A DNA stretch of 64,000 nt. Origin: Protoeuglena noctilucae. Its lineage: Eukaryota. Below, piece after piece: positions 12,517 through 64,000 of the stretch (positions are counted from its first letter, which is position 1; each line of letters begins with the position of its first letter). Both the position numbers and the translations under genes were made by a program. The stretch spans positions 434,001 to 498,000 of the forward strand of contig OY253688.1 of assembly GCA_958009085.1 (NCBI GenBank), given 5' to 3'. Under the pieces are notes generated by a model. It was not told the origin of the DNA and ran no database searches. It saw nothing but the letters and a program-made list of their open reading frames with translations.

Positions 12517-15500
12517 ATGGCGCTCGATTCCATCCTCAACGTGAACGTCGGTATCCTTGGTGACGTTCGCGCTGCACGGGCATGGGCATCATCTCCTCGC
12601 CGCCTCGAACCCACCGCCCTGCACGCTAGCTCGATCGCAGTCATTCCTGGATTCGCAGGGCACGTGGACAGCGGCAAGACGAGCCTGGTCGCAGCTCTTT
12701 CCACCCAGCTTTCGACGGCCGCGCTGGACAAGCACCCGGAGAGCAGGCGCAGGTGCGGGCAGGACGCTCTGGGCGAGGCACTTTGCAGCATCCCCGTGAC
12801 CGTGTTCCTCACCCGCTGCCACCGCGACGCTCCTGCAGGGGCATCACCCAGGACCTGGGCTTCTCTTCGTTCGTCACCGATGCGCCCGAACACGTCCGGG
12901 CCCGTGGCTATGGGCGGGTGCAGTTCACGCTGGTCGACTGCCCCGGCCACGCCACCCTCATAAGGCAGGCGGGCCACGCGCAGCTCAGATGCGGGCGCCG
13001 CACCTGACGGTGAAAACGCTATCCTTAATCCCGCTTCTTGTTTGCCCTGACTCAGGACCATCATCGGTGGGGCGCAAATCATCGACGTCATGGTTCTGGT
13101 TATTGACGCCACCAAGGGCATTCAAACGCAGGCGAGTCTGTGTTTCGCATTACACATTACGAGTGCTTTTTCATGCACCGCGCCACGTCACCTTCCTGCT
13201 ATGCTCACCCTGGCCTGCATTGCGACTTCCGCTGTTGCGCCACCCCGACCGGCACCGCCCACCCAGTGCCACTCCCCCTGCTCTTCCGGTGTCTCTCACA
13301 TGCATGTCTCCAAACACCAATATCTCCACATTCCGACACTCTTCACTCTCCCAGACGGCCGAGTGCCTCGTGGTGGGGGAGCTCACCGCTGAGTCGATGC
13401 TCGTGGTGTTGAACAAGGCGGACCTGTTCCCCGAATCAGAGCGAGAGCAGAAACTGGCTAAGCTCGAGAAGGGCATATCTGCCACCTTTGCCAAGACCAA
13501 GTTCGCGGGGTGTCCCATGGTGCGAGTATCGGCACGGCCGGGTGGGGGCGACAACACGGTGGGGTTCGATGGGTCCAGGGCTGTGGGGGTCGAGGCTGTG
13601 GTCGAGAAGCTGAGGGATTTCGTGCCGGGAGAGGCCAGGTGGGTGGGTGGACGGCAGGGTCGGTGGTGATGTATGCATGAGCCCTCACCTTGCTTTGCGT
13701 GGTGTTGGCTATGTGGTCGTGTTGGCTGGTTCATTGACTGGCAGCTTCGAGGCCGTGCATGCATCCATCAGCTTCGATGCGTATTCGTGCTGCGCGCAGG
13801 GACCAGTCGGGCGACTTCTGCATGGCTGTCGACCACTGCTTCGCCATCCGGGGCCAGGGCACGGTGATGACGGGGACCGTGTTGTCGGGGCGGGTGGCGG
13901 TGGGCGACGAGGTGGAGGAGCCAAGCAGGCGAGGACTGCGTGAAACAAAGCACGATGAGGAAGCACGAACCATCGAACATCGACGGGGTATTTTTGAGAG
14001 ACAAGTGCTACTTTTGGCATTGCGTGCAGAAAGGAGCGCTTCAAGGTCAAGAGCATGCAGATGTTCCGCAAGCCGGTGCAGCAAGCTGGCAAGGGCGACA
14101 GGTGACGCGAGCACAGGCTGTTGCTCCGTCAGGACTGGCAAGGCCAGACTGGCACGCAGTCACTGGCATCTATGACGACAGCAGATACCAGTGTCGATTG
14201 TCACTGCAGGGTGGGCGTGTGCGTGGCTGGCCTGGACCCAGCGGCTTTGGAGAGGGGCCTGGCGTGCACCCCTGGGTCCGTGCCCACCTTCACGAGGGCC
14301 GTCGCGGTGGTGGAGAAGATTCGATTCTACAAGGCAACCGTCGCGGTGAGTGGTTACGTCTTAGTGGGTGATTGTATAAAAACGCAATGGAGCTGCAGGC
14401 CCGGGGGCAGCTGGGCCTCCAGTGCAGTCCCAACTGTCGCTCATAATCTATTGCGCATAGTTAGAGTCAGAACTTCCCTCAGCACCACCTCCCCGCAGAG
14501 CAAGAGCAAGATGCACGTGACGATCGGCCACGCGACTGCGGTGGCGGACCTCCACTTCTTCGGCCTCCCAGACGAGGCAGAGCCGTGGTGGCTGACGTCC
14601 AAAGAGGCACCGGCGCAGGACGCGGGACGGCTGCGGAAGCGGGAGTACGCCAGGCCCGTCCAGGCGAGGGCCGCTGGGACGTGCTGTAGCTGGTGCGAAC
14701 GTGCTGCGTGCTGGCCCCTTGCAGCCTGGCTGCTCATGCAGGTCGTCCCGCCACCATCAAAGGCGATACTAACACAACGGTATTCGAGATACTCTCATAT
14801 TTCCTTGCAGATGGAATCTGAGGAGTATCTCCACCAGGACGAGCTCTATGGCCCCGAGGGCCGCCCCGGCGCAGAGCCGACCTCATCCGTTCAAAGCGAC
14901 ATGCCAGAGCTGGGTGTCACTTACCGTGGGCCCCAGTGGGTGCTGATGCAGTTCGAGCACCCAGTGACGGCGCCCAGGGACTCTGTTGTGATCGGGTCAC
15001 GGGTGAGTGGTGGTTCAGGGAATAGCGCTAGCGCTATCCAAAATGTTCATAGTGCTACTGCGTAGTGCTATCTATGTGGGCGTTTCCACATCATTGACAT
15101 GAGGTCCCTATCCATTCTCCTTTCGTCCATCTTTGCAGCTGGACATGGATGCGCAGACGTCCACGTGTCGACTGGGCTGGTACGGCCGCATCGTGCATGT
15201 GGTGGACGACAGGGACCCGGGGGCACTGCAGCGGCTGCGGGTGTTCAAGGTGGGAGGCTCTGTGGCTGTGGTGGATGGGGCTGGTGTTGATGATGGGTGC
15301 GTATTTGGATGAGACTATGAGACGGGGGTTCACGGCAATGGTGGCTGGGGTTACTTAGCCGAAAATCAATGCTTGTAACAGCATCGGATATGCCAATTGT
15401 TACATTCAACTTTCAAATCGCCTCACACGCAGTGGAAGCGGCGGGAGGGGTCGGTGGAGCGAGTGGAGGCGGACGGCCGCACGGCGATATGCAAGGGGAT

Positions 15501-29353: not shown

Positions 29354-29818
29354 CGGGGAGGTCGGCCGGGATGCGAGGCCCCCCCGACGGTGCGATGCAG
29401 CGCGTCGGCAGTCCTAGCGGGTAGGGCGAGGGAGCCCGCCCCTGCGCCTTAACTGCGCGTAAATTGTAGCGCAACACATCGCATTGTTCTAACGAGTTCG
29501 CTGTGATGCGCGAGGGTCCCCAAATCGGCGCAAGGAGGAAAGGCAATGGGCTGCAGTGTGCGAGGCAGTGGATATCGCACCCGCACGGCGGAGCACAGAA
29601 AAGAGCAACTCTCGGTGCCTTTTTTTTGCCAATGAGCCTCCTGCAGCCATTTGGAAAGCACCACGCGGCCAGTCCTGCAATTGGGCCGCTCCGCCCGATG
29701 GTCCACTGGCTGGCACTTCTCACCTACTGGCGAGGTGACAGCACAGGAAAGCGAGCCCAGCACAGGTCTGAGCGCACGTATGCGACAGTCGTGACCCCCC
29801 ACATCTCACGTCCATGTC

Positions 29819-30986
29819 ATGGACGCGGAGATGGGGGGGCGCGTAGTTGTCGTCGGCGGGGGCGCACTGGGCTCTCTCCTGGCCGCGAAACTTTCGGCTG
29901 GAAGTGCCAAAGTTTCGATATTACCGAGCCGAAGCCCTGAGAAGTGCCGGGTCCTCGCCGAGCAAGGCATTCGCGTAGAGGGCCTCAGCTCCGTGCACGC
30001 CTTCGTGGACGTCCTGTGCGCGCCGCGCGCTCTCCCTGCGGACACGTCGGCCGTGCTTCTGGCAATCAAGGACGTCGGACGCGGCGTGGAAGATGTCGCT
30101 GCAAGGCTGGCGTCCCCCAACTTCGTCCCCGACGCGGCTGTGGTCGTGAGCTGCATGAACGGCATTCGGGCCCTCGGCGTGCTGGAGCGCCACGGCTTGT
30201 CCACGGATCGGACCGCGGCGATGGTCAGCGCACTCGGCGCCACGCTGCTCGACACTGGCCGAGTGAGGCATGTCGGCAACGGACCGAGCTACCTCGGAAC
30301 ACACTCCAGCTCCCCAAGGTGTGACCGCCTTTGTTGCTGGGAGAGCGGGTGGGCGGCGTCATCCACACCTCCATCTCGAGGTTTGGATGGCCGAGGTGTG
30401 AATCAACGACTCCCTGCCGTCTCTCCAGGACTCGCGAGGCCCTTGCGCGGCTCACGGAGACTCTGCGGGCCTCGGGCTTCCCGGTGGAAGTGCTGGGGAG
30501 CGAACAGGAACTGGACCGCGCTCTTTGGCGCAAGCTCGCCGTGAACGCGGCCATCAACCCTCTCACGGCGCTGCACGGCGTGTTGAATGGGGAGGTCCTT
30601 GCCCGCGCCGACCTTGCAGACCTGGCGCGCCAGCTCTGCGAGGAGGTGGCTGTGGTTGCGGCCGCGTCCGGGCGCAGATTGACTGCGCAGGAGGCGTGGG
30701 CTGCCGTGACGGAGGCTGCGGAGAGGACGGCAGGCAACCGGTCGTCCATGTTACAAGACATGAAGGGCGGGCGTCCGTTGGAGCTGCAGGCCATCAACGG
30801 GGCGGTCGTGGAGGAGGCAGAGGTGACGGCTTTGCCATGCGCTTGTGCAATCGTTGGCGGGTACGTATGTGAGACGGGTGAGGCAGCGCCAGCCTGCCCA
30901 CGCAGGCGAGCGGGGTGGGCGACCAAGTGCCGGTGAACCGCCGAATCATCGACCTGGTGACGCAAGCCGCAGCAAGTAGGAATTGA
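29819..30986 (+). CDS. panE: 2-dehydropantoate (ketopantoate) reductase, PanE/ApbA family, 3 exons
   Basis: VVVVGGGALGSLLA Rossmann motif, LLAIK, SCMNGI, LWRKLAVNAAINPLTAL...NGEV, NRSSMLQDMKGGRPLELQAINGAVV. Introns ~30319-30428 and ~30823-30905. Confidence 0.88.
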
Positions 30987-31103: not shown

Positions 31104-34100
31104 TCAGGCCAGGACCGCGGACTTGGTCGCTGCCAGGATCTTGTCGTCGATCGTAAAGTCGGGCTGCTTGTTCATGCGTCCCTCCTTCTTGTAGAGCTCC
31201 ACCAGCGCGGGAACGTCGGAAAGGAAGTCGTGCTGGGGAGTCCAGCCCAGCAAGCGCTGCGCCTTGGCTGCAGACACGTGTACAGGAACAACCGTAAGTG
31301 AGCAGGTCAGGCAATCTGTTGGGTCAGCTTCATGCATGCACTCCGACGCACGCAAGCTCGCTCAATGTAGCGGCCCCATGACATCCAAGCAGCGGCGACA
31401 AACTCACAGCTCGAGGCGAAGAAGTGGACGGCCCGGAACGGGAACCCATCCACCTTCGCGCCCTTCCCCAGCCCCAGCTTCTCCGGCTCGTACAGCACCA
31501 CCTTGGCCTCCTTGCCCGCCGCCTTGGCGATCGCCTTGGCCATCCCCACAAACGTCACCGTCCTGCAGGCGCCGACACGGAACATGGCTGCTCGCACCCC
31601 ACACATCGACCGGCCGGCTCCCTGCTGCCAGTGTCCACCGCACGCCCCGTCTTCACCCCACCCCGCGCAGCCCCTCACCGGTCCGAGCACGCGTTGAAGT
31701 CCTGCCCGATCGCCGCCTCGTTCCCCGGCACGCACGCCAGCATTGACGCCACGTCCTCTACGTGCGTCATCGACGTGCACTGGATGCCCGGCGACGGGAT
31801 GCACACCGGCCGGTCGCGCAGGATGCGGTCCATCATCCACTGCTGGTAGTCCTTGGCGCTGTCAGGCCCGTAGATGTACAGCGGCCTGCGCGGGAACGCG
31901 AGAGTGACATGCGATGGTTGGGACAAGCCACAGGCCTCATGCCCGGCATGGGGCGCGCACCTGGCCACCCGCAGCCCACTGCCCGCCGCCCCGCTGCCGC
32001 CCCTTCAGTCCGCACCTGAAGATCGTGTACGGCATCTTGACCTGCTTCAGGTACTCCTCCACGTAGAAGTGGTCCTTCTCCGCCCGCTTGTCCCCCTCCA
32101 GCGACATGGGCTGCCCCGCGTCCGCCTTGTACATGCCCGCCGACGACACAAACACATAGTGCTGTACCTTGCCCCGGTACGCGTCGATCAGCGGCCGGCA
32201 AGTGTCGATGTCCTTGCCGTTGTTGTCGTACACCACGTCGAACGACCCCGCAGGGTACGACGACGGCTTGGTCGGGCTGCCCCACACCACCTGCGGCGCG
32301 GGGGCGGCGGCGGCAGCAGCGTCGCATCCCGGGCGCGACCGGGGGCCCTCCAGAGCGCGACAGACCCCGCCAGAGCCTACTGTACACGCTGCTCAGTCGC
32401 CACTGCTCGCCCGAGCCCACGTCCGCCCTGCACCCTGCCACCCGTCCCAGCACCGCGCTCACCTTGGCCCCCGCGGCCTCCAGCTCCTTGTACTTGGCGA
32501 ACGGACCCTTCGACGACAGCTTGCTCGCGTCGCCGTCGTTCAGGATCGTCACGCTGTGTCCCTTGGCCATCAGCGCCCGAGCTGCGGGCACGCGCGCATC
32601 GCAGGGTGGCTGTCGGGAACCAGCGCCCCTCGCGCTCCGCCGCGGCCCTCGCCGCGCGGATCGCCGTACCATGAGACATCGATGGCAGCCCGCGCGCCGC
32701 CGCCGCCCGCACGGCTCACCGAGGTAGAGGCCGATAAAGGCGTGGCCCCCGCTCTTGCAGTTCACGATCAGGCACTTCATCGGGGGGGCAGGGGCGGGCT
32801 TGCGGACGTTGAGGACGCGAGCAGTGCGCTTGGTGGAGGCAGCGCCGGCAGAAGCGCCAAACTGCGGCAGAGAGCAGGGCACTGGACCGTCACATTGAAA
32901 GAGACTCAAAGCGGCGTCGAGAGAGGGAGGTGCGCTGCTACCAGACCTCCGAGCCCTCTCTGAGGCACTCAGCGCGATGGCCACCGCGAGGTGCGATGCA
33001 ATGGGACACGCGAGGCGCGATGCATGGGTGCCACTCACCGCGGACGAAGCCATGCTGGAGCCCTTGTTGCCGGGCGTGGTGTCCCAGAAGGAGGACGCAG
33101 CGGCAGCGAAGTCGGACTGCGCCGACGTGGCCGGCTGTGCGTCCCAGAAAGACGAGGTGGGCTTGGCGTCCCAGAACGACGACGTCAGGTTGAACTGGGT
33201 GGAGCTCGGCTGGGCATCCCAGAAGGACGAGGTAGGCTTAGCGTCCCAGAAAGACGACGCCAGGTTGGACTGCGTAGAGCTGGGCTGGGCGTCCCAGAAC
33301 GACGAGGTGGGCTTGGCGTCCCAGAACGACGACGTCGGGGTCGACTGGGTGGAGCTGGGCTTAGTGTCCCAGAACGACGACGCAGCCGTGGACTGCGTAG
33401 AGCTCGTGCTCGACTGGGAGTCCCAGAACGACGTCGTGGGCTTGAACGAGTCCCAGAGCGTTGACGCGTTGGAAGCGTCCTTGGAGCTCGGCTGCGAGTC
33501 CCAGAACGAAGACGTCTTGGCTGGCTCCGCAGCCTTCGTGCTAGGCTGAGAGTCCCAGAAGGACGTGGTGGGCTTGAACGAATCCCAGAGCGACGAGCCC
33601 TGGGCCGCGGTGCTGCTCGGCTGCGAGTCCCAGAACGACGAGGTCTTGGCCGGCTCCGAAGACGTCGAGCTGCTCGACTGCGAGTCCCAGAACGACGTCG
33701 TGGGCTTGGTGTCCCAGAAAGACGAGGTCTTGGACGTCTCAGCAGAGGTGGTGCTCGACTGAGAGTCCCAGAAGGAAGAGGTCTTAGAGGAGGAGGTCTT
33801 GGCAGGCTCCGCAGCCTTGGAGCTCGACTGGGAGTCCCAGAACGACGTCGTGGGCTTGAACGAGTCCCAGAGCGACGTGCCCTTGGCCGTGTCCTTCGAC
33901 GCGGCGCTGGGCTTGGACTCCCAGAGCGACGTTACCGAGTCCCAGAAAGAGGGCGTCTTCTTGGCAGGCTCCTGCGTGGACGTGGAGCTCGACTTGGTGT
34001 CCCAGAAGGAAGAGGATGAGGTCTTGGAAGCCTCCTTGGTGCTGGGCTGCGAGTCCCAGAACGAGGACGACGACGACGTCTTGGCAGGCTCCTTCGACGC

Positions 34101-37100
34101 GGTGGTGCTGGGCTGCGAGTCCCAGAACGACGTCGTGGGCTTGAACGAGTCCCAGAGAGATGACCCGTCGGAAACTCCCTTGCTGCTGGGCTGCGTATCC
34201 CAGAAAGACGACGTCTTGGCCGGCTCGGCAGACGTGGTGGTGCTGGATTGGGAGTCCCAGAACGACGTCGTGGGCTTGGTGTCCCAGAAGGATGACCCCT
34301 TGGACGTCTCCTTAGTAGTAGTGCTGCTCGACTGAGAGTCCCAGAACGACGATGACGACGACTTGGCGGGCTCCTTGGATGTCGTGCTGGGCTGCGAGTC
34401 CCAGAACGACGTCGTGGGCTTGAACGAGTCCCAGAGAGACGACCCGTCGGAAACTCCCTTGCTGCTGGGCTGCGTATCCCAGAAAGACGACGTCTTGGCC
34501 GGCTCGGCAGACGTGGTGGTGCTGGATTGGGAGTCCCAGAACGACGTCGTGGGCTTGGTGTCCCAGAAGGATGACCCCTTGGACGTCTCCTTAGTAGTAG
34601 TGCTGCTCGACTGAGAGTCCCAGAACGACGATGACGACGACTTGGCGGGCTCCTTGGATGTCGTGCTGGGCTGCGAGTCCCAGAACGACGTCGTGGGCTT
34701 GAACGAGTCCCAGAGCGTGGACGCGTTGGAAGCGTCCTTGGTCGTGCTGCTCGACTGGGAGTCCCAGAAAGAGGAGGTCTTAGCAGGCTCCTTCGTGCTT
34801 GACCACGAGTCCCATGACGAGGACGAGGACGACTTGGCCGGCTCCTTGGTAGTAGAGCTGCTCGACTGGGAGTCCCAGAACGACGTCGTGGGCTTGAACG
34901 AGTCCCAGGATGACGAGCCCTGGGTCGCGGTGCTGCTCGGCTGCGAGTCCCAGAACGACGACGTCTTGGCCGGCGTGGATGTCGTGCTGGGCTGAGAGTC
35001 CCAGAACGACGTCGTCGGGGTAGAGTCCCAGAACGACGACCCCTTAAAAGCCGCCTGAGTCGTAGAGCTCGACGGAGAGTCCCAGAAGGAAGAGGAAGAG
35101 GTCTTGGCAGGCTCCTTGGACGCGGAAGTGCTCGACTGGGAGTCCCAGAACGATGTCGTGGGCTTGAACGAGTCCCAGAGCGTTGACGCGTTGGAAGCGT
35201 CCTTGGTGCTCGACTGGGAGTCCCAGAAAGAGGACGTCTTGGCGGGCTCCGCAGCCTTCATGCTAGGCTGAGAGTCCCAGAACGACGTCGTGGGCTTGAA
35301 CGAATCCCAGAGCGACGAGCCCTGGGCCGCGGTGCTGCTCGGCTGGGCGTCCCAGAAGGACGAGGTCGGCGTGGAGCTGGGCGCGTCCCAGAAGGAAGTC
35401 GTGGGCTTGGAGCTGGGCTGGGCGTCCCAGAACGAAGACGTCGTTGAGGACGTGGGCTGCGCGTCCCAGAACGATGACGTTGTAGAAGACGTGGGCTGGG
35501 CATCCCAGAAAGACGAGGTGGCCGCGGAAGACGACGACCCAGACGAAGGCCCGTTGCCACCCGAGCTCTTGGTCGCTGCCAGGATCTTGTCGTCGATCGT
35601 AAAGTCGGGCTTCTTGTTCATGCGTCCCTCCTTCTTGTAGAGCTCCACCAGCGCGGGAACGTCGGACATGAAGTCGTGCTTGGGAGTCCAGCCCAGCATA
35701 CGCTTTGCCTTAGCTGCAGGAAGGGACGGCGGGCACAGGTTCACCAATGCCAACCGCCTCAGGCCACCTCGTATCGTACGCTGGCCCTTTGACAGTCGGA
35801 AAGAGCCTCACCGCTCGAGGCGAAGAAGTGGACGGCCCGGAACGGGAACCCATCCACCTTCGCGCCCTTCCCCAGCCCCAGCTTCTCCGGCTCGTACAGC
35901 ACCACCTTGGCCTCCTTGCCCGCCGCCTTGGCGATCGCCTTGGCCATCCCCACAAACGTCACCGTCCTGCAGGCGCCGACACGGAACATGGCTGCTCGCA
36001 CCCCACACATCGACCGGCCGGCTCCCTGCTGCCAGTGTCCACCGCACGCCCCGTCTTCACCCCACCCCGCGCAGCCCCTCACCGGTCCGAGCCCGCGTTG
36101 AAGTCCTGCCCGATCGCCGCCTCGTTCCCCGGCACGCACGCCAGCATTGACGCCACGTCCTCTACGTGCGTCATCGACGTGCACTGGATGCCCGGCGACG
36201 GGATGCACACCGGCCGGTCGCGCAGGATGCGGTCCATCATCCACTGCTGGTAGTCCTTGGCGCTGTCAGGCCCGTAGATGTACAGCGGCCTGCGCGGGAA
36301 CGCGAGAGTGACATGCGATGGTTGGGACAAGCCACAGGCCTCATGCCCGGCATGGGGCGCGCACCTGGCCACCCGCAGCCCACTGCCCGCCGCCCCGCTG
36401 CCGCCCCTTCAGTCCGCACCTGAAGATCGTGTACGGCATCTTGACCTGCTTCAGGTACTCCTCCACGTAGAAGTGGTCCTTCTCCGCCCGCTTGTCCCCC
36501 TCCAGCGACATGGGCTGCCCCGCGTCCGCCTTGTACATGCCCGCCGACGACACAAACACATAGTGCTGTACCTTGCCCCGGTACGCGTCGATCAGCGGCC
36601 GGCAAGTGTCGATGTCCTTGCCGTTGTTGTCGTACACCACGTCGAACGACCCCGCAGGGTACGACGACGGCTTGGTCGGGCTGCCCCACACCACCTGCGG
36701 CGCGGGGGCGGCGGCGGCAGCAGCGTCGCATCCCGGGCGCGACCGGGGGCCCTCCAGAGCGCGACAGACCCCGCCAGAGCCTACTGTACACGCTGCTCAG
36801 TCGCCACTGCTCGCCCGAGCCCACGTCCGCCCTGCACCCTGCCACCCGTCCCAGCACCGCGCTCACCTTGGCCCCCGCGGCCTCCAGCTCCTTGTACTTG
36901 GCGAACGGACCCTTCGACGACAGCTTGCTCGCGTCGCCGTCGTTCAGGATCGTCACGCTGTGTCCCTTGGCCATCAGCGCCCGAGCTGCGGGCACGCGCG
37001 CATCGCAGGGTGGCTGTCGGGAACCAGCGCCCCTCGCGCTCCGCCGCGGCCCTCGCCGCGCGGATCGCCGTACCATGAGACATCGATGGCAGCCCGCGCG

Positions 37101-37754
37101 CCGCCGCCGCCCGCACGGCTCACCGAGGTAGAGGCCGATAAAGGCGTGGCCCCCGCTCTTGCAGTTCACGATCAGGCACTTCATCGGGACGGCCATGCTG
37201 ACTACCGCCGCGCGGCTCACGTGCGCCCGGAACTTGCGAGACGCAGCGGGCGCCAGCGGGGCGGCGAACTGCGGGCAGGCAGGCACCGTAGGTCACGAGG
37301 CTCACACTGGCCCCTCGTGGCCGACACACAGGGTCGATCACCGCACGGTCAACGCTAAGCTGTTCGTCCCCCGCGTACGAGCGGCGGGAAGGGCAAGTGG
37401 TTCGGGGAGTGTCTCAATTCGAGCTCGCCGGCCGGGTATCATTGATGCTCCGGGAAGTCGGGCCGCCTTACCGAGCTACCAAAGGGGCAGCATCCGGCGC
37501 GATTGCTCAAAAACGTGTTTGTTGCGCACGCGGGAGCCGTCACTAACTGCGCTCGTCCCCTGAAAAGCCGGCGGCATGGTCCGGCCCCCTCTCCGTCGAG
37601 GGGGGACCCGGATCGAGGACGTCGACCTCACCGGTAGTTTCGGCATCCGGGGCGCAGCCGCTGATGCGGAGGTGGTCCGCATCAACGCCGGGGCGGCGCC
37701 CCGAGCGTCGCTGCGCCCCGCGACCGGGGTCGCGACGGGGAGTGTGGCTGCCAT
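31104..37754 (-). CDS. CSP41A: Chloroplast-targeted tandem CSP41a (atypical SDR/epimerase, stem-loop RNA-binding) fusion: transit peptide - CSP41a - ~840-aa SFWD-repeat linker - CSP41a, ~1,550 aa
   Basis: Exon 37754-37725 plus intron 37724-37269 gives MAATLPVATP|FAAPLAPAASRKFRAHVSRAAVVSMA. Both domains have the CSP41a signature KCLIVNCKSGGHAFIGLYL, FDVVYDNNGKD, YVFVSSAGMYK, FRPLYIYG and FPFRAVHFF. Domain 1 runs without a stop (exon 35713-33039) into the repeats, then splices (33038-32862) into domain 2. TGA at 31104-31106. Confidence 0.85.
31403..37188. repeat. Direct repeat of ~1.38 kb: 31403-32784 versus 35807-37188 (offset 4404), covering CSP41a exons and introns
   Basis: By eye the copies match, introns included. 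Differences noticed only at 31408/35812 and in the codon giving NACSDR versus NAGSDR. Confidence 0.93.
33039..35564 (-). repeat. Coding low-complexity repeat array: 54 (F/L/S)-W-D motifs in Ser/Thr/Pro/Lys spacers, including a 279-bp near-perfect tandem duplication (~34105-34714)
   Basis: Recurrent GTCCCAGAA on the plus strand. Manual count of 54 'WD' plus one 'WE' in the translation. Identical blocks start at 34105, 34384 and 34663. Confidence 0.95.
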
Positions 37755-42180: not shown

Positions 42181-45100
42181 TCACGACCGGGCTGCCTCGC
42201 GCAACGACGCTGCGGTCGGCTTCATGTCCGACATGCCCTGCTCCTCCCTCACCACCAGGGACCCCTCCGTGGCCCTGCACGCATCGAACAAGCGGGTGGT
42301 TGTCGAACATCCAGCAAAACAGACCAGCTTTGGGCTGAGCCCAAACTCCCATCTAATCACGATCCACTCCAACAGGGTCGGCAGTCGTTGGTCACCAGGG
42401 TAGTACCTAGCACCCCATACGCCGTCCAGCGCATGCCGCAAAGCCACAGGCAAAGCCGCTGCAAACCAAAGGCGCCGCAAGTTGCCACAGGCACGCACCC
42501 ATGCGCCCTGCCGTTGGCGTCCGGCACGGTCTGGAGGTACTGCATGAGCTCTCCCGGGGAGCTCTGCACTTTCAAAACGGCACGGTAGCCCTCGAGGAGA
42601 GGCGCCACGTGCTCGGGCCCTTCGTCCACCAGCTCCACTCGCAGCCACCCGACCCCGGCCAGTGCCCAGCCACGCAGGAAGTACGTCCCCGTCTGCGCTT
42701 GCGCGTTGAACACCGTGTTCCTGCAGCCCTGGTCCGCCAGGATCAAATGATCCTTCCCCGCGCTGTCCCTGCGCATAGCGGAGATGGGGTGGGATGTTTG
42801 GCGGTAGGGTGCACTGGTAGTCGATGCATAGTGATGGAGTGGAATGCGCATCGAGTCTCCGTGGTTGAAATGCGACCAGCTTAGAACATTGCAGCCGACA
42901 CTCACCGCAGATGGATGGTGCTGCGCTCGCAGGGGTGCCCGCAGTCCTTGTAAGAGTTGCCGCTGGAGAGGAATCGACAGAACACGCAGTGCTCGGTGTG
43001 GAAGATGGGGAGGTGCTGGTGAACGATGGCCTCTAAAGAGCCACGCAGCTGCGACGAGACGGGGAGAGATGTGGTGACGGACGAGATTGCACAGCCACTA
43101 TGCGAAGCGAGATTATAGCACAAAGGGCCATTGTGCAGCTGCCGATCGTACTGCCCATCGTACCCGCAGCCTTGCTGAGGCTCACCTTCTCGTCGGAGTG
43201 GGCGCCCAGGGACAAGGCGAGGTCCCGTATCTGCAGCCCGTTCAGATCGTGGGTGGGCGTCAGGCGAGCGATGCCAGTCGAGAGGAAGTCCCGGGCCGAC
43301 AGCGAGTTGGCGGCGTTCAGGGAGAAGTCCCCACGGAGCTGCAAGAGAAAGTGGGGAAGGGTACAATCAGAAATAATACTGGGTCTAGCGTCTTTGGATA
43401 CAGCTGAGCAGAGACAAGCAGTCGGGCACTGCACAGCGAGGACTGCACCAAAGTGACCATCACAGGAAAGCAACCACCATCAGCGACAACTAAGCACAAC
43501 CACCCGTGCATTCCAGCACCAAGCGCCCCCACCCACCTCGGGCACGCCTTGTTCCCCACTCGCGCGCAGCCCCGCGAGCGTGTGGAGCATCCCAAGCGAC
43601 CTCACGAGCAGCGCGTCGGCCTTCAATCCCAGGTAGAACTGACTCAGGCGCTCCTCGTCGGGCTTGAGCACACGTGGGCAGGCCACCACGACCCGCCGCC
43701 CCGCCTCACGCACCCGCCCCACGCATTCCGGCAGTCCATGCACCTCCAGGAAATCAAGCACGATCTCTTCGACCCACGGCACGGCCAGGGCCGCCTCCGC
43801 CTGGGCGGGGTTGCGGCACAGCACGTTCAGTCGGGTCAACCCCGTCAGGTCTTGGCCCTGGTCTAGGGGCACCCCGTGGGCCTCCTCGGACGCCGCAGCG
43901 ACCCCGCGCTCGCGCAGGAGAGCTGGGAGGGCTGGTTCCGAGGTAATAACGTCTGCTTGGTCGACTCGTTGGTCCAAAGCTGCGAGGAAGGCCTCCACCG
44001 CTGCTCTCCGGGCCTCCTTGATGTCGCTCGCGGGGACGAAGAGCCCCGCGGCGACGTCCAGGCCGTCCGCGTCGAAGCGCGCGAGGCGGAGAGGGGTGCC
44101 GCCCAGCTCGCCGATGGCACGGGCCACCGAGTCGGGCAGCAGAGGGCGGCGGTCGGCGGGTGTGAGGGCCGAGGGCGTTGAGCCCTCCCCGCACACGCCG
44201 TCCTCGTTGGACACCTCCACTCGCAGGGGCTCTCCGATGGTGCCGGAAACGCGGACGGTGACGGCCATGCGCCGGCGGTCCGACTCAGCGACACTCTGCG
44301 TGGGGTGAGAGCGCGGGGGCCGACGGTGGGGCGATGGTCGAAACATCCAACAAACCGCGAGTGCTTGGCAACACGACAGATGCGCAGAGTCACCTCGTAC
44401 GTCTTCCTCAGCGCGCTCTCCAGAGCCAGGTCTCGCGTCCGCCACACCCGCGCCCCCACCGCCACCTCGCCCCACTCCAGCTGGCTCCCCAGCGTCAGCC
44501 GCACGACCCCACCCGACAGACCGCCTTCCCCAGACGCGGCGCTCTCAGCACCGGCCGTCCCAAGCTCCACAGCTCCCGATGCTTGTTCCAAACGCAAGCT
44601 GTCCTTCTTCGCCCCCCGACCCCCCAATCTCCCAGTCCCTCGCCCCGCACGCCCCACCCCGCCTGGCCCGGTACCCCTCGCTCCTGCGTCCACATCGCCC
44701 CTCGCCCCTGCCACCTGGCCCCGCACAGAGCCACCCCCGCGCACCGTCACGCGTCCCACGGCCCCCGCCACTTCTCGAATGTCGTAGATAACCCCTCCCT
44801 GCTCCCTCTGCGGGTCGCCTCCTTCGATGCAAATGCCGTCGCCCCGCTTGAGCGCCACCCCGCACAGCGTCACCTCAAGGGACCCGTCGGGCTGGGCGCG
44901 GGTGGGAGCCCTGACGGCCGAAACGTGACCCACGAGAACGCCCCTGCATAATGAGAGGCACACGATGGGGCGTTGTCTTGGTATGATGGGGTGCGCATAC
45001 ACAGCGAGTTGCACACCCTCACTGTTGTCTAGCATCCAGACTGGCCATGACAATCCCAGCTGCAACATTGCCAGCTACGACGTTGCACGCATGCGGCGGG

Positions 45101-46733
45101 GACAGCTGCGCTGACAGCCACGACGCAGTCGCCGTGCAGCGAGGCAGCCCAGTGATGGCGCCTCACCGGTGTTTGGGAGCCAAGCCCCGCACGAGCCGCT
45201 GGTGCTGCACGCCTCCCAGGAACCCCGGCGTGAGGCCATCGTGGCGCTCGTCCTGTCCGCGCGCAAAGACCTGGCGCAGGCTGACCAGGTCATCTGTAGC
45301 GACTGTCGCGATAGCGGCGGCGGGCGATGGGGGTGCGACGGAGCAATCCCCTTGCATCTCGGCCCAGGCACGGTCCACGGCTCGGCGATAGACCTGCAGG
45401 GAAAGCGGAAAGCGAAAGACGTCGCCGTCTGGGACAAACGTCGCGATGCCGCTCCGCAGAGCGCTCGCGAATGCCATATCGCATCTTGCCTGGGTGGTGA
45501 GGGCGACGTACTCGGGCCCCTTGAGCCGCCCCTCGATCTTAAAGCACGTGACGCCGGCCCGGATGAGCTCGGGGACGTGCTCCACGGCCATCAGGTCTTG
45601 CGGCGACAGCAGGTACCGCGTGTCTCCGAGGTCCCTCAGCGCCCCGTCCACCACCAGGCCATATGGCAGTCGGCACGTCTGGGCGCACTGGCCCCGGTTG
45701 GCCGAGCGCCCGCCCCAGGCCTCAGATGAGAAGCACTGGCCCGAGTAGGACACGCACAAGGCCCCGTGCACGAAGCACTCGACCTCGCACGACGTCTTGG
45801 CCGCCACGCGGGCAATCTGAGGGCACGAATACAGGAGTGGGTTTCGTTGATCGAAGCCGCCGTGAGTGGGATGGGATAGGAGTGCCAATGAGACGGCGAG
45901 GTGCAGGTTGGGTACGTGCGTGGACATGTGAGGGTACGGGCGCAGGGGCAGAGCCGTCCATCTGCGGCCCCGCACCTCAGCGACGCTCAGCTCGCGCCCC
46001 ACGACGACCCGCTTGGCCCCCAGGGACTGGGCGAACTCTGCGCCCTCGGCTGACGTGATGGACATCTGTGTGCTGGCGTGGACGCGCAGACGGGGCGCCA
46101 CGCGCTGGGCGAGCCGTGCCACGCCGACGTCCTGCACGATGACGGCGTCCACGCCGGCAGCCGCCACCACGCGCAAGGCCTCCTCCACTTGCGAGAGTTC
46201 CTCATCGAATGCGAGCACGTTCAGCGTCACGTACCCCTTGCAGCCACGGTGCCTGCGGGCGCAGAGGGTTTCGCCAAATAACATGCGCCCGCGCCCAAGC
46301 GCACCGTCCACGGCCCATGCATAGCTCTCCACGTAGCTATTCCTCACCGCAGGTAGCGCATCATATCGGGGAGCTCTTCGTACGTGAAATTGCTCGCCCT
46401 CCGGCGCGCATTGAAGCCCGACTGGAGGCCAAAGTACACTGCGTCGGCCCCGTTCTCGACCGCCGCGTGCAACTGGGGCCAACCGCCCACGGGAGCCAGC
46501 ACCTCGGGCTTCTTGTGCCCATGCAGCGGTGCAAACTGGCTCGGCTGCGCAACGGCCAAGCCAGCGTAGAGGTCGGGCATCTTTCTGCGCTCTGGGGCGT
46601 CTGCCGCCCTATACGAAGAGTCGTTGACGTGACGTGACGCTCCGACAGGCCAGGGACCTCGGAGTCGCGCACCCTCGCGAGAAACGGCGCGCTGCGCGGA
46701 CACGCCGGCCCCGGCCACGCCGGACCATCCCAT
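42181..46733 (-). CDS. Peptidase U32 family protein, long RlhA/YdcP-like form (probable rRNA hydroxylase with DUF3656-type middle region), with N-terminal extension, ~9-10 exons
   Basis: KPEVLAPVGG...AAVENGADAVYFG..FNAR, GYVTLN, DAVIVQDVG, HASTQMSIT, Fe-S motif FVHGALCVSYSGQC..SEAWGGRSANRGQCAQTCRLPY, FKIEGRLKGPEYV, GELGGTP, GDFSLNAAN, HTEHCVFCRFLS, DQGCRNTVFN. Confidence 0.9.
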
Positions 46734-54714: not shown

Positions 54715-57700
54715 TCACTCCATGCCCTTGAGCGCGCGGAGCATCCGGAAACGGCTGAACCCGGCGTTGGGCGACGCCTCCTTCCCAAACTTGACGGCAG
54801 GAGACGCCTCCAGGCTGCAAGCAAAAGCAACGCGAGTTTCATGAATCCACACGCCAGGCGCCCCCGGAGCCCGCGCAGCGCATGCGCGACGCACCTGTCC
54901 GCGCCATTCGACTGCGCGTCCTGCGAGCCCTGGTCCCCCGACTTGCTGCCCGTGCCGTCCAACGCGCGCTTGGCCTGGCCCCACGTCCCGACCCCGAACA
55001 GCCCCTGCTGCGCGTCAGCCAGGGTGAAGATGCCGGCGCGCGACGCGGGCGACTGCGCGCCTGTGGCCCCAAATCCGACCCTCCTGCGCGCGGCGCCCTT
55101 GCTCTCCACCCGCGACATCGGCATCGGCGATACCGTGTCCACCTCCTCCACCTCCTGCTCCGCCTTGGCCTTCTGCAGCGCGCTCTTGAGCTCCTTGGTG
55201 TCGAGCACCCGCGGCCCCACTTGCGGCACGTGGGGCACGCGACGGCCCCACCCGGCCCCGCGCCGCTCGCCCTCCGCGGCCGCGCGCTCCGCCTCCGCGC
55301 GGGCGTCGAGCTCCCCACGGAGCCGCGCGAGGAAGCGCTTGGGGCGGCTCTTGGCCAAGAGGTCCATGTCGGTCTGCACAGCACGTTCCATGGGGTCGTC
55401 TGCTAAGGGATCCACCGCCGGCAGCGACGAGGAGTCGATCCTGCGCGCCTTGCGCATCGCCAGCTCCGCCACGGCGTTGTGGTAGTCCTGCAGGGGGGGC
55501 GGGGACGGGGCGTGAACAAGCGCAAGGGTGCAAACGCGACTTGCCCATGCAAGCAAGCAAGCAAATAGCAGATATCCAGTTCGCCATGCAACACACTCCC
55601 ATCCACAAGCAGCCCACGACATGCCACATGCGCCCTGCTACATGCGCCCTGCCACATACGCTCCACGACTGTGCCCTCACCCGGGCGCCAGCCATGGTAA
55701 ATTCCCGGGACATGAACCCTCCCGCGGTGGTCCTGGACATGCGCGACTTGTCGTGGCCCGTCCGGTAGCACTCCACCTCGTACGGCGACTCGCCCAGGTC
55801 GACCCAATTCACGTCCCCCGCCCGCTGGTGTCGCACGATGACCCCGAAGTACCCCACCTGCCGGAGGGTGTAGCTGCACCGGTAGAGGTTGCCCTCGACG
55901 CGATCGACCCTGGCGTGGACGACGGCCTTCCGGAAACGCACGCGCACGACCCCACGACGCTTGAAGATGTCGAGGCGTCCGCCCCGCACCTCGACAAAGA
56001 TACGGTCTTGCGGGTGCCAGGTGGGGTTGCCGAACCGGTCGGCCGTCTCCACGAAAAACACCTGCTCCGCGTCCCGCAGCACGCGCCCGGACGTGCCCTC
56101 TCCGTGCACCTTGCACGACGGGGCGTGCGTCACGTCCGCGTCCACGTGCACCACCCGCGGGCACCCGCTGAGCGTGAACTTGGCCAGCTTGACCACGAGC
56201 GAGTAGTCCCCCGCGACCGTGAGCCGGTACTTGCACGTGTAGACGCCCTTCCTGGGGCCCGACACCTCCCCATACACGTCGTCGGCCTCGTGACCCGCGG
56301 GGCGGAATTCGGCCACGAAAGACCCCGCGGGCGTCTGCTCGTCGGCACGGCGACTGGCGATCTCGAACTCGGCCGTCGCGCCCGCCACGGTACTCGAGAG
56401 GCCCATGCCCGACATGACGAAGTTGTTAGCAGCTGCCTCGTCCATCGTTCGCGCCCCAGTCCAGAACCCTGCCTTGAAGAGACCCGGGGGCACCACGCTG
56501 ATCGCGGCGGGCGAGCCCACGACGTGCTGGCCACCCAGGGTGACCTCGAGCGTGAGGTCGTAGTTGCCCGCCTCCTTTGCTAGCACGCGAATGAGGTATT
56601 GCCCGTTGTTGTTGTCCTGGATGTCAGCGAATGCGTCCGGGTGGCCCGTCAGGTGCACGCGGAACAGCGCCCCTCCCGTGTCGAGCTCCTGCCCGTCCGG
56701 GCCGCATGACTGCAGCACGATGCGGTACGTCTCGCCCGAGTTGACCTGGGGGCGATAGCGGAGAGAGAGATGGTGATGGCGGTGGTGGCGGTAATGAGCG
56801 ATGTAATGAGCGATGTAATGGACGAGAGCTATGCTGCCGTACACACAAACACAGAGAGAGAGCGAGCCTATGGCTATTTCTGATACCCCACGCCCAGCCC
56901 CTGACGCACCTGGGTCGGGAGAGCTAAGAGCGAAGACATGGCGGTGCTGACCCCGATGGGCGAGACTGCTTGGAAGAAGGGCGACCACAAAATGGGCGCT
57001 CCGTTGACGCTAATGTCCACGCGCACCACCACGCCCGCTGACTTGTGCAGGTGAGCCAAGGCCTCGTCCTTAGGCAGGGGCATGAGAGACAAGTCGGGCA
57101 GGTAGGACACTGCGGGGGGGAAGAGCATCTGGGGTTTGCAAGTCCGCGTGCACGGTTGGCTGCTAAACACGGCAAACGCATCGAACGTCACAAGGCTCGC
57201 ATGCAGGCTGGCATGCCATGATGACGAACAAGCGAACCCAGCAGAGGCATTGGACACCAGTAAATTCAAATCGACTCACCCGTGTACGTCCCGTCTCCGT
57301 TGTCCTTGACTTCCGTAGGGATGTTCCACGTCCCGGTCGTCACGGTGCACGCTACAGAGGCCGCGCCACGGCCGATGGGGTTCGACCACAGGTCACACAG
57401 GTGCACGCGGAACTGGCAGAGCTGCCCGTTGACCACGGGGTTCCTCCCGATGCCCTCCCCGTCCGCCTGGCACTTGCCAGGGGCCACGCTCCCGGCCACG
57501 ACAGCGATGCGGTAGGGAGAGCGAGCCACCGGCATCATGACGGGGTTCAGGGCGAAGCCACTGCAGCCCTCGATGTGCAGGTCGTACAGACCCTGGTCCT
57601 GCGGGGGCAGAGAGGCGGCAGTTAGGGTCAGTGCATGCGCCAGTACCTGTCAACACATGTGTCGGGCGCCGTCAGTGCACCCATCCCACGCAGACAATGG

Positions 57701-60700
57701 TGCAGGGGCTCTGGCTTTCGTTACAACCCAGCTCCCTGCACCTGCTCTCCTCAGCTATAGCCAGCGTCCCACATGCAACCCAGCCATGCCGGCCCCGTAG
57801 CCTCTCACGTGCGGGACGTATGACATCGTGTAGGTGCCGTCGCCATTGTCAACCACGTTGGCCATCACCACCGCCTCCTTTCGCTTGCGGCTGACTGTCT
57901 CGTCATCCCTCGCCACGCGAGCGAGCCATCCCTTGAACACGTCGTTGCCGCCCCCGATCGGTCGGCCTTTCGAGTCCTTAGCGGTAATGACGAGCGTCGC
58001 CTCCTCGCCCGCAGACACCGCCTGCCGCGACGCCGTGCCCTGGATGCCCGGGCCCTCCGCCTCGCACGCCATCGGATCTGCAGCAACGCGACGCAAGCAA
58101 ATGGGTTGCTCGAGAAGTTGCTCGAGCGTCGCTCGCATGCCGAGTGTGACTCCGCTCACTGCACGCGTGTTCTAGCTTCTATGGTGTCACCACACGCACC
58201 ATACGCATGCATGGCCCGCATCATCATATCACATAGTATCACTCACCGACTTCGCCCGCCATGACCATCACGTGGAACGGGCTCCCCTCCAGGTGCCCCT
58301 TGTCGCGCCCCTTGGTCTGCACGGCCACCAGGTAATGCCCCGTCTCTTTCAGATCCAGCTCCGCCGCATACGTCCCATCCCCATTGTCCACCACCTCCCC
58401 CAGCGCCCGCAGCTCCGGCTTGCCCCCGCCCGCGCCCGCGTTGCGGGGGTCAGTGGAGACGTGCTCGGCGAACACCGCGATGCCGTCGCCGCCGTGACGA
58501 ATGCGGTTGCCGAAGCGGTCGCAGGCGTAGACGGCGATGGTCGCGGGGACACGCGTGGCCCACCGCGCGTTCACGCACCGCCCGTGGATACGCGAGTGCT
58601 GGCGGCTCAGGGGCCCCGGGTGCACTTCGACAGTGAAGGGCGAGCCTGGGACCTCCCGGTTGGCGTAGCGCACGTGCATCTTGACGGTGGCCGCCTGTGG
58701 AGGTAACGAGATGCGATGTGTTATCACATAGGACATACCATGGACACCCAAGACTCTTCTTTCATCAGCTCTGTTCCACTTTGTTACACCTTACTGTCCC
58801 TCACGACCCCGCCTTACCTGCTGAACACAGGACTACCTCACAGTGCCCCATGGCATACCCCCCGCCCCTCACCTGCTCGACGTGGTATCGAATGCGCAGC
58901 CGCGGCCCCGCCCGCTCCACCACCACCCCGAAGCTGCCCCGCTCCACGCCGCCGATCTTGACGGACACTTTGCCCTCCGCGCCCAGCTCCGGCAACACGT
59001 TGTTACCCAGGGCGTCATGCAGGGACAGGTACAGGTCCGTGTCTCGCCCGGCTTCGGTCGATTCCAGGCCCAGACCCTCCACCACCGTGTTGCCTGGCAC
59101 GGCCGCCCCGGGCAGCACCGTCACAGGGCACGGGCAGCCCATCACGAGGCCGCCATCCTCGCCCTGAACAAGCAGGGAGAAGTCCCCGGCCTGCACGGTG
59201 GGCACCACGACGCGATAGACACCGGCGCCCAAGTCGCGGACGTCGCCCGCAGCCACCGCCTCGCCGGGGGCGCCCGGGCGGACGAGCGCGGCGGTGAAGA
59301 GGGCCCCGGCGCGGTCGCACGGGGCCCCCAGGGCGTCGCGCGCCTGCACGAAGAGCTCCAGGGGGGCACCCGCGGCGATTCTGGCGCAGAGGCCGTCCTC
59401 CGCGGGCGCCAGGGCATCGCCGTGAATCGAGGAGAAAGCGCTGGAGGTCGCGCGGAAATCAGCGACGCACGCGGCGTGCGCGAAGCGGCCCGGCGGCGCG
59501 AGGCCGGGGAAGCGCAGGGACGTCCACGTGGCGGTGCTAACATCGAGGACGTAGCAGTCGCGGGTCCACGGCGCCTGCTCCACGCCGACCCATCCGTCCA
59601 CGAGGACGAGTTTGCTGCCCACGGCCGCCAGCGACGAGCCCTCGCGGGGCGGCGGGGCCGGCCCGGTCGCCTGCAGCGGCTCCCATGCCATCCGGACACG
59701 CCCACCCACCCTAGCCTCGATCTCCACGACCGTCCCGCACCACAGGTCCCCCGCGAGGCGCCCGGACGCCAGCCGGCCCCCGAACACGAACAGCTGCGCG
59801 CCCACGGCGGGGTGGCCGCCCCAGGCGCTGGCACGCTCGGCGGGGGCAGCGGCGGCCGCCACCCTCAGTCCCTCCAGGTCGAGCTTGGCCCGCGGCAGGA
59901 CGAGCGTAGAGCAGTGGCCGGACCGCGCCTCGGGCGCCTGGCCCTCGTAGTCCACGAACACGACTTGAGGGCGGGCGGCGTCTGCGTCTCTCACGAGGTC
60001 GTCCGGAAGGCCAGCTGCCGCGGGGGCGAGAGAGCACGCGGACAGCAGAGCGCGCTGCTGGAGCCGCGTGACGTCGACGGCGACGGCATCGGAGAAGACC
60101 GCGCCGCCGTCGGAGCGGCCGCCGAAGACCAGCAGCAGCGCCCGCTCCCCAAACTGCAGGCGGACCGTGGGGGGTTGGAGTCAAAGCCAGCCAGTTGTTG
60201 CTAACAGTAACAAGTCAAACGCATCATGAAAAGACACGACCATGGGATGACTGCCACCCCGCGCCCCCCCACATCGCCCCCCCGCGCTCAACCTCACCAG
60301 CGCCGCCCCCGGCACGGCGTCGACGGTGTGGCCGGTGCGCGAGACCTCCCCCGCCTGCGGCGTAGCATCGGACCAGAACATCTCAACCGTATTAAGCGCC
60401 ACGATGTCTCCCAGGACCTCCCCGGACGGCCCCGTGCCTCCCAGCACATAGACGTGGTTTTGCAGGTACGCCGACGCGTGGCCCGATCGAGGGCTCGGCT
60501 CCTGGGCCTGGGGCATCCCCAGGTCCAGGGACTGCCAGGCGTTGGTCACGGCGTCATAGACGCAGAGCTGCGGGACAGGAGGGGCGCGGGGTGGGTGGCG
60601 GTGGGGGTATGGGGTGGCGGCGTGCGTAAAGCTCAGTAGATGCGGCTCGCCGAGTGTGCATTAAAAGTGAATTACATGTAGTCTAGTATTGCACGCACGC

Positions 60701-63373: not shown

Positions 63374-64000
63374 CGCGGGCCCCTGCGGGCGCAGGGGGGA
63401 GAAGGGCACGCACATGGAGCTGTCGCCCGCGGCTCCGCATCTGCCGCCGAACCAAACGCGGTGATAATGCAACCACTCGTTGATGGACAAGATTACAAAC
63501 TACAGTGCTCAGCATCAGCTTCCCTACGAGCGCCACGGGCCGGAGATGGCCAGGGAACGCACACCCCTCGCTGGCGACGCGCACCGGGGGTCAGCGAGCA
63601 TGAGCTGGGGACTCACCCTGTCTACAATTCGCTCAAAGAGCCCCGTAACACGCTAGAACCCCTCGAGGTGCTGTAACGACGAGGTGCTAGCTGCGCGATG
63701 CCGCCGCTAGGGACTTGCGCAGCTTTGCGACGCCGGGGCGGCGAGCCGGCGGTGCGACCCTCCCTACAGTCGCAATTCCTAGTAACGATCCCTTGGTGCA
63801 ATTGTCAAAGAGACCTGTCCCAGCCTGGCGCCGAACCAGCTTGCGCACATGTTCGGGAGCTGTAGGTCCGGACCGGCGCGCTGGAGGCTGTGGCCGCGGC
63901 AAGCGACCGACCCCGGCCGCACGACAGCAATTCAAGGCTATCGGGGGAGCCTGCCCCCCACCTGTCGACCTGACTTTCCGGCAGCTCGCCTGAAACAGCG

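Follow-up and report, generated by a model that had tools for sequence, protein, structure and literature searches.

The minus strand of a 64,000-nucleotide (nt) stretch of the Protoeuglena noctilucae genome (GenBank assembly GCA_958009085.1, contig OY253688.1, forward-strand positions 434,001 to 498,000; hereafter the window, numbered from its first letter) carries, from 37754 to 31104, a gene whose predicted product is probably a single fused protein, in which two CSP41a-type modules are joined by an 844-residue, Ser/Thr-rich linker with about 50 evenly spaced (S/T)S(F/L)WD motifs, which we call SSFWD motifs. Assembled from its coordinates, the gene has 13 exons and 12 introns of 98–363 nt, all 12 of them bounded by GT..AG, and the spliced product is one open frame of 1586 residues (170.8 kDa) that starts with the ATG at 37754 and stops with a TGA ending at 31104. 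From N to C terminus, this product comprises a transit-peptide-like start, CSP41a-type module 1, the linker, a 32-residue relic transit peptide, and module 2. A sequence-only reading that preceded the present analysis had drawn the same limits (31104..37754) and had described one frame encoding a transit peptide, a CSP41a domain, a Ser/Thr-rich linker of ~840 residues with regular FWD motifs, and a second CSP41a domain; its coordinates agree with the assembled gene model, and splicing and profile searches uphold the architecture. As we discuss below, the fused gene and its motif array may together specify a multivalent SSFWD protein that acts in a plastid condensate as scaffold or client, an explanation that, taken whole, we consider a real possibility somewhat short of probable.

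Both modules were recognized by a profile hidden Markov model (HMM) built from an alignment of 11 CSP41 homologues (353 positions), which matched the spliced product twice, at residues 53–390 (E 4e-169) and 1242–1583 (E 2e-169), each time over nearly its full length (HMM positions 15 to 348 or 350 of 353). Of 322 amino-acid positions, 315 are the same in both modules, which have isoelectric points (pI) of ~9.2 and, judged by these matches, the full-length CSP41-homologous, epimerase-like fold of the NAD(P)-binding type. Among the homologues, P0002, P0006, and P0007 score above the Pfam cut-off for PF01370; the 91-residue exon 4 by itself matched PF13460 only, below the cut-off (E 3.6e-4). An N(C/T)K(S/G)GGHAFIG signature, which we take to mark CSP41a, is common to the modules and all 11 aligned homologues, and the best named matches are green-algal proteins with a CSP41A-type tail, from Gonium and Volvox. 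The label of a- rather than b-paralogue is provisional, as it is based on best hits and this signature in a comparison that contained no CSP41b sequence.

The two modules belong to a tandem duplicate with a 1382-bp core. This core (31403..32784, minus strand) matches 35807–37188 with 99.86% identity, introns included, such that only 2 of 1382 bases differ across exons and introns together, and the first and last exons of the two copies have diverged (the last exon, for example, by 11 mismatches in 146 nt). In a DNA-type sequencing run (X8), depth was 108 over the duplicated core versus 56 over unique DNA, which, with the diverged flanks, indicates that two copies really exist and that the duplicate is not an artefact of assembly. 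A near-identical core beside diverged 5' parts and last exons looks like an older tandem duplicate whose core has been homogenized by gene conversion, seemingly as an ongoing process.

The linker occupies the larger part of exon 7 (33039..35570, minus strand), directly following the start of that exon (35571..35713), which encodes the C-terminal helix region of module 1, ends in ...DDKILAATK, and has no stop codon. Its 844 residues include 262 Ser, 124 Thr, 66 Ala, 61 Lys, 61 Asp, 59 Pro, 56 Phe, 56 Trp, 41 Gln, and 18 Glu, such that Phe and Trp together make up 112 of the 844 (13%) and Asp 7%. Other hydrophobic residues are as scarce as the sequence-only reading had stated, with 11 Leu (nine of them within motifs), 3 Val, 2 Met, and no Ile or Tyr; Cys, His, and Arg are also absent. 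Counts of 56 W, 54 WD, 44 FWD, 48 strict [ST]S[FL]WD, and 51 [ST][ST][FL]WD establish a real array of about 50 copies; the figure of 54 motifs given earlier corresponds to the WD count, the strict motif being present 48 times. Across 2000 composition-preserving shuffles of the linker, the mean count of [ST][ST][FL]WD was 0.06 and the maximum 2, compared with 51 in the real sequence. Spacing from Trp to Trp averages 14.7 residues with a standard deviation of 4.6, and random placement of the Trp residues gave a standard deviation of 13.9, the lowest of 2000 trials being 8.8. The real spacing is thus regular, as had been claimed, over a range of 3–23 residues that is wider than the ~9–23 first given. 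The motifs are nested in diverged super-repeats of 44–95 residues.

With a pI of 4.69 and a grand average of hydropathy of -0.94, the linker is acidic and polar; the pI of 8.5 of the whole precursor is owed solely to the CSP41 modules. AlphaFold2 placed no secondary structure in it, either in a 281-residue portion predicted from the single sequence (mean predicted local distance difference test score, pLDDT, 43) or in a 93-residue unit predicted from a 6-row alignment (pLDDT 53), both of which are shallow inputs, and a Pfam scan of the linker matched nothing. On these models the linker, which contains at least three repeats, is predicted to be intrinsically disordered.

The linker is real coding sequence, and its array is old and constrained at the level of protein. 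Over 35713–32700 (~1000 codons), the coding frame is free of stops, of which the alternative frames contain 10 and 14. GC content at third codon positions (GC3) is 0.87 in the linker and 0.945 in an exon of CSP41. Lys is written AAG at each of its 61 occurrences, whereas TCG, TCC, TCT, and TCA are used interchangeably for the Ser residues that are invariant in the motif. Among six aligned repeat units, the ratio of nonsynonymous to synonymous divergence (dN/dS) was 0.14–0.39 in 15 of 15 pairs, with dS between 0.5 and 1.0 in 14 of the 15, as measured on a protein-guided alignment, which favors low dN. Values of this kind argue that the array is no fresh microsatellite.

Transcript evidence bears directly on the junction between linker and module 2. 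RNA contigs from three runs in two studies (X2, X4, and X5), and contigs from the DNA-type run, were aligned over 32300–33135 only (836 nt). The intron at 32862..33038 (minus strand, 177 nt, GT..AG, no in-frame stop) is absent from RNA: position 32861 is joined to 33039 in 3 of 3 RNA runs and in 0 of 1 DNA-type runs. An adjacent intron (32719–32582) was likewise removed in all three RNA runs and retained in the DNA-type run, and RNA depth is zero inside both introns. Because the 177 nt correspond to 59 codons, the frame is kept across the splice. The sequence-only reading had proposed that transcripts that splice out the linker or end before it would refute a fused product, and the answer is partial: all three RNA runs join the end of the linker in frame to module 2, but the contigs reach only 142 nt into the linker. 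They end at ~33180, at the same point as the DNA contig, which marks an assembly break at a repeat rather than a mapped transcript start. Short-word content extends this view. According to the exon model, two modules without linker would supply at most 0.315 of the sampled 31-mers of the locus and a fused mRNA 0.672; four RNA runs of one study (X1–X4) hold 0.51–0.55, a share above 0.315 that places more than half of the linker words in spliced RNA. Run X7, with a share of 0.05, does not enter into this comparison. Because the only in-frame path from the linker to a stop codon leads through module 2, and because the linker is under selection, the fused protein, module 1-linker-module 2, is the most economical reading and, as a predicted product, a probable one.

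A search of a protein collection with the 91-residue exon 4 gave 16 hits among 42 candidates, and the exact protein of this alga was not found in that collection, the top match being 80% identical over the 91 residues. The closest relatives, at this level of identity, are P0002, P0021, and P0023, which lie on contigs of 3–6 kb and seem to have one intron; 3 of the 3 that were read end at ...DDKILA, and the linker is accordingly best regarded as lineage-specific. Of the 11 aligned homologues, eight terminate no more than a few residues from ...DDKILA, where the linker starts here, and the other three have C-terminal tails, with Trp motifs in 3 of 3. In the Gonium and Volvox homologues (P0009 and P0012), NWRESL and DWRS(R/A)L lie in a tail that starts exactly at the point at which the linker starts. 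From these alignments, the tail of the CSP41 family seems to be a site at which lineage-specific Trp motifs get installed. The transcriptome-derived homologue P0007 (555 residues) has a Ser-rich N-terminal extension and a Ser/Gly-rich C-terminal tail of ~150 residues, with the motifs YDWNK, PMWKG, and two SGWG, a third, independent Trp-bearing tail of a CSP41a homologue.

The SSFWD motif recurs outside this gene. In a word-indexed search for linker homologues, in which 8000 candidates were scored, only P0001 passed, and in an exhaustive search of 1.84e9 representatives two sequences passed, P0001 and P0018. The latter, a bacterial repeat protein with WQHSNG..IWD units, was discarded as a compositional or chance match. 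P0001 and its variant P0019 have an A/R/S-rich N-terminus that resembles a plastid-type presequence, then 10 SSFW(D/G) and 3 S(S/T)FF(D/G) motifs with Q/E-rich spacers, then a coiled-coil-like E/R-rich stretch. Metagenome contigs were also scanned with a codon pattern for three FWD triplets, which gave at least 121 stretches and at least 119 loci; among the matches listed, the sole locus kept was L109, a GC-rich contig with one open frame that carries nine TSSFWD motifs with P/A-rich spacers, and more motif proteins may exist beyond those listed. P0001 matched only itself in the protein collection, ESM Atlas gave no usable match to P0001 or to the C-terminus of L109, and Pfam found nothing in either protein. 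Apart from the bare motif, the linker is without homologues in the sequences searched. The recurrence of the same 5-mer in three unrelated spacer chemistries suggests that a partner recognizes it as a short linear motif and that it is more than a compositional sticker, and points to SSFWD as a real motif of this class. A six-frame scan of the window found no S[FL]W[DE] outside the linker, and the window therefore holds no second motif gene. A literature search for SSFWD or FWD motifs returned no relevant report among the matches listed; those listed for CSP41 with pyrenoid linkers, or with fusions or extensions, likewise included none that describes the present architecture, which the sequence-only reading had not recognized either.

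Nearly all of the other loci listed from the metagenome scan, among them L002, L064, L070, L078, L090/L043/L027, L034/L099, L113, and L053, were rejected as CRISPR-like arrays or simple tandem repeats. L113 (GC 0.64) encodes six PLSFWDETSQ units with KTFWDE and PLSIWDE variants and has the look of a simple DNA tandem repeat; L078 (three DDWSFWDDDPD) and L053 (three RSFWDH) are apparent simple tandem repeats too and were left out of the count of motif proteins. L001, L003, L004, L020, and many others are arrays with a period of ~65 nt, which we took to be CRISPR; their repeat contains TCNTTYTGGGAY.

Comparison with characterized plastid systems places the predicted protein near pyrenoid linkers without matching any. 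The very C-terminus of Chlamydomonas CSP41A is a Rubisco-binding motif of the kind that marks pyrenoid proteins, in agreement with what had been claimed of it when the locus was first read, and the protein co-purifies with Rubisco (PMC7673724). According to a preprint (10.64898/2026.07.16.738900), both CSP41a and CSP41b of Ulva and Chlamydomonas reside in the pyrenoid matrix. The modules here share the CSP41a-type epimerase-like fold with Chlamydomonas CSP41A (Cre10.g440050), P0009, and P0012, at 61–63% identity over the 91-residue exon 4, and the linker resembles the tails of P0009 and P0012 in beginning at the same point after ...DDKILAA and in having Trp-centered short motifs. The Volvocales proteins, however, have one module and a tail of ~95 residues with two basic motifs, NWRESL and DWRS(R/A)L, whereas the present protein would have two modules and about 50 acidic SSFWD motifs in its 844-residue linker. 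Like EPYC1, CsLinker, and SUPA1, it would be a disordered plastid repeat protein of stickers and spacers, and its stickers, like those of SUPA1 and the Chlamydomonas motif, are built around an aromatic residue. Those known linkers, as the sources describe them, have 5–6 helical basic stickers ~40–60 residues apart, a pI above 8, a length of ~300 residues, and no folded domains; here about 50 acidic five-residue motifs lie ~15 residues apart in a chain of pI 4.69 between two folded, enzyme-like caps. The nearest architectural precedent is PPAP28 of the chlorarachniophyte Amorphochlora amoebiformis, a pyrenoid-matrix protein with 90 five-residue motifs that co-precipitates with Rubisco (PMC10927497; review PMC13655443). 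PPAP28, too, is very large, mostly disordered, and species-specific, with the short motifs of its central array 2–23 residues apart, but its motif is [D/E]xPKS without Trp, it has no CSP41 domains, and it shows no sequence relationship to the protein described here. The diatom linker PYCO1 has a Trp-centered sticker, KWSP, and hornwort RbcS-STAR is a folded plastid protein that carries its own condensing extension (review PMC13655443); both differ from the present case in motif, partner, and lineage. From the sequence, the domain would belong to the CSP41a family and the system would be akin to sticker-spacer pyrenoid scaffolds, from which it departs in the two defining properties of motif spacing and pI, with a motif that we did not find in print among the matches listed.

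To account for these observations, we propose that a tandem duplicate of a CSP41a-type gene gave rise to one nuclear gene in this GC-rich marine green alga. The upstream copy has no stop codon, and its last exon runs on into the 844-residue linker, whose end is spliced in frame to the downstream copy. The product would be a precursor of ~171 kDa, presumably imported into the plastid, in the form of a dumbbell with ~300 nm contour length of acidic disordered chain between two folded basic CSP41a modules. The evenly spaced SSFWD motifs would serve as equivalent multivalent stickers for a plastid partner, with the CSP41 modules as folded caps, and the protein may thereby take part at high valency in a plastid condensate, either as its scaffold or as a client; because of its valency of about 50 motifs, we favor a scaffold over a mere client. 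The most likely location would be the pyrenoid matrix, with SSFWD playing the part that W(R/K)xxL has in the tail of Chlamydomonas CSP41A. In our assessment a pyrenoid role is plausible: the presence of CSP41a and CSP41b in the matrix, the tail motifs of the Volvocales proteins, the recurrence of SSFWD, and the precedent of PPAP28 would all favor a pyrenoid or another condensate.

Several points weigh against this proposal. A pyrenoid role presupposes that the source alga has a pyrenoid, and the fused product rests on DNA and RNA contigs, the protein itself being predicted. In the 836 nt aligned, the RNA contigs stop well short of module 1, and a promoter within the linker that drives module 2 alone from an ATG at 33053 would fit the same contigs. 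The closest relatives appear to end without a linker. P0001 and L109 are not tied to this alga and their hosts may differ; GC3 is 0.70 in L109 versus 0.87 in the linker. The 1586-residue product has no match to [D/N]W[R/K]xx[LIVA], W[RK]xx[LIVA], or KWSP, in keeping with the earlier statement that the linker motif is not the Chlamydomonas W[R/K]xx[L/I/V/A] motif. Finally, a linker criterion of the FLIPPer type asks for a repeat spacing of 20–120 residues (PMC11570498) and another for a pI above 8 (preprint 10.64898/2026.07.16.738900). The linker here agrees with a further criterion of this type, a chain that is mostly disordered and has three or more repeats, and falls outside these two, with a mean spacing of 14.7 residues (range 3–23) and a pI of 4.69, and the characterized linkers are basic with 5–6 motifs.

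The internal ATG is the basis of one alternative to the fused gene, which we regard as rather unlikely. The locus would comprise two transcription units, with module 2 made mainly from a promoter in the 3' end of the linker, starting at ATG 33053, as an ordinary 358-residue CSP41a that brings a transit peptide of its own; the fused product would be occasional read-through or would not be made, and the linker would be a mere C-terminal tail of module 1. This scheme would explain why MASSA, with its ATG, stands before a splice donor and is followed by a 27-residue A/R/S/P segment, in the layout of the start of module 1, and why the RNA contigs extend ~127 nt upstream of ATG 33053, a normal length for a 5' untranslated region (UTR). 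Two RNA runs, X5 and X6, speak for it and against a fused mRNA, as they hold only 0.27–0.32 of the 31-mers of the locus, near the 0.27–0.32 expected without the linker. Module 1 and the linker would then be left without any stop codon, however, despite the codon bias of the linker and its dN/dS of 0.14–0.39. TGTAA is the poly(A) signal of chlorophytes, and none lies between the linker and module 2. The end of the contigs at ~33180 is moreover an assembly break common to the DNA run, and the share of 0.51–0.55 in X1–X4 exceeds the 0.315 expected of modules alone. A separate mRNA for module 2 could possibly coexist with the fused product.

If the fused protein is made, its linker might work by means other than Rubisco binding. 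It is conceivable, though on our estimate unlikely, that the linker condenses with itself in the manner of FG-nucleoporins or prion-like chains and so brings the RNA-binding CSP41 modules together in RNA-protein granules of the stroma, on ribosomes, or on nucleoids. Phe and Trp, 13% of the linker, are evenly distributed along a polar spacer of little or no charge, which is compatible with such behavior, as is the predicted disorder; an acidic linker (pI 4.69) between basic modules (~9.2) permits electrostatic self-association, and CSP41 has a role in plastid RNA and ribosome metabolism. Self-condensation would, however, have no need of an exact SSFWD 5-mer, and conservation of this 5-mer in three unrelated spacer chemistries speaks instead for a defined partner. 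We consider it improbable that the partner is starch, that is, that the array binds amylopectin or the starch sheath of the pyrenoid and so tethers CSP41. ESV1 and LESV are plastid proteins with Trp/Asp/Glu-rich domains, which hold glucan double helices through aromatic and acidic residues set at regular intervals (PMC10219597), and each SSFWD motif likewise offers Phe, Trp, and Asp at regular spacing, between hydroxyl-rich spacers and in a predicted plastid protein. In composition (13% Phe plus Trp, 7% Asp) the linker resembles such a domain. The binding surface of ESV1 and LESV is a folded, conserved beta-sheet domain with high-confidence AlphaFold models (PMC10219597), whereas the linker was modeled without strands or any fold at pLDDT 43–53, from shallow input, and has neither a Pfam match nor a sequence relationship to those proteins. 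Least probable in our view is that the linker has no function, either as tolerated junk from a neutral in-frame expansion or as the discarded middle of a polyprotein that is cut at the internal transit-peptide-like site into two CSP41a proteins. Its absence from the closest relatives, its lack of homologues, and the transit-peptide-like segment before module 2 would suit either version. Neutral expansion is hard to reconcile with dS of 0.5–1.0 (14 of 15 pairs) at dN/dS of 0.14–0.39 (15 of 15), with motif columns that are invariant while their codons vary, and with AAG at 61 of 61 Lys codons, and it seems unlikely that 2.5 kb of strongly codon-biased sequence would be kept merely to be discarded.

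Should the proposal of a multivalent SSFWD protein hold, it would bear on a field in which linkers and Rubisco-binding motifs have been resolved in few lineages, are mutually unrelated, and were found through proteomics. The locus supplies a sequence-defined candidate motif for an unsampled marine green alga, on a member of the CSP41a family, known as a conserved client of the pyrenoid matrix, and with a valency ~10 times that of EPYC1. If SSFWD binds Rubisco, it would represent a new acidic mode of binding and a new type of linker, flanked on both sides by folded domains, of relevance to the engineering of pyrenoids in crops; if it binds something else, it would define a new plastid system of multivalent short motifs with at least three unrelated proteins. 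An extended version of the Rubisco idea, to which we give a low probability, holds that, in a lineage of marine green algae, SSFWD is the motif that binds Rubisco and directs proteins to the pyrenoid, having arisen independently of W(R/K)xxL, KWSP, and helical stickers, and that CSP41-(SSFWD)x50-CSP41 is the matrix linker itself. Were this true, the linker would be acidic, of very high valency, and capped by two folded, oligomerizing, RNA-binding, enzyme-like domains; condensation of Rubisco would be tied directly to plastid RNA metabolism, and P0001 and L109 would belong with it to a motif-addressed pyrenoid proteome. The locus also offers a clear case of a fusion gene from a tandem duplicate, in which an internal relic transit peptide was kept and the modules stayed uniform, apparently through gene conversion.

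The remaining parts of the gene, all on the minus strand, are as follows. Exon 1 (37632..37754) contains the ATG at 37754 and encodes the first 41 residues of a 69-residue presequence with 21 Ala, 9 Pro, 7 Arg, 6 Ser, and a single Asp, its sole acidic residue; it resembles a plastid transit peptide, and the presequences of the homologues are of similar length. Module 1 continues through exons 2–6 (37268–37124, 36985–36867, 36694–36420, 36289–36083, and 35966–35812), with GT..AG introns of 363, 138, 172, 130, 116, and 98 nt at this module. At the other end of the linker, MASSA (33039..33053), an in-frame ATG plus four codons, abuts the splice donor in an exon/intron layout homologous to exon 1 and intron 1 of module 1, and its ATG could be a relic of the start codon of module 2 or one still in use. 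Exon 8 (32720..32861), which is covered by RNA contigs, encodes the relic transit-peptide-like segment FGASAGAASTKRTARVLNVRKPAPAPP, whose 27 residues before module 2 are rich in Ala, Arg, Ser, and Pro, and the beginning of module 2, which is completed by exons 9–13 (32581–32463, 32290–32016, 31885–31679, 31562–31408, and 31267–31104), the TGA ending at 31104. Between 30700 and 37900, TGTAA occurs once on this strand, at 30751..30755, ~350 nt past the stop codon, and may be the one poly(A) signal that serves the entire locus.

GC content across the window is 0.59–0.70 per 2-kb bin. The neighbors identified with Pfam encode PanE/ApbA, a eukaryotic SelB, peptidase U32, and filamin/Kelch proteins, none of which is evidently a gene of the carbon-concentrating mechanism. 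A ketopantoate reductase gene (PanE/ApbA N- and C-terminal domains; 29795–30936, plus strand) converges on the 3' end of the fusion gene, and the candidate TGTAA at 30755 would put the 3'UTR of the fusion gene within this neighbor. An open reading frame (ORF) fragment at 14106–15065 (plus strand) gave a hit to PF21208 (E 6e-14), which is domain III of the eukaryotic selenocysteine-specific elongation factor; the alga probably makes selenoproteins. Two adjoining ORFs at 43480–46608 (minus strand) match peptidase family U32 (E 1e-66) and the DUF3656 'collagenase' C-terminal domain (E 3e-15), a pair that is typical of bacteria and is found here in an intron-bearing algal contig. Large ORFs at 55015–60180 and 62371–63492 (minus strand) encode filamin/ABP280 repeats and Kelch beta-propeller repeats and may belong to one multi-repeat gene or two.

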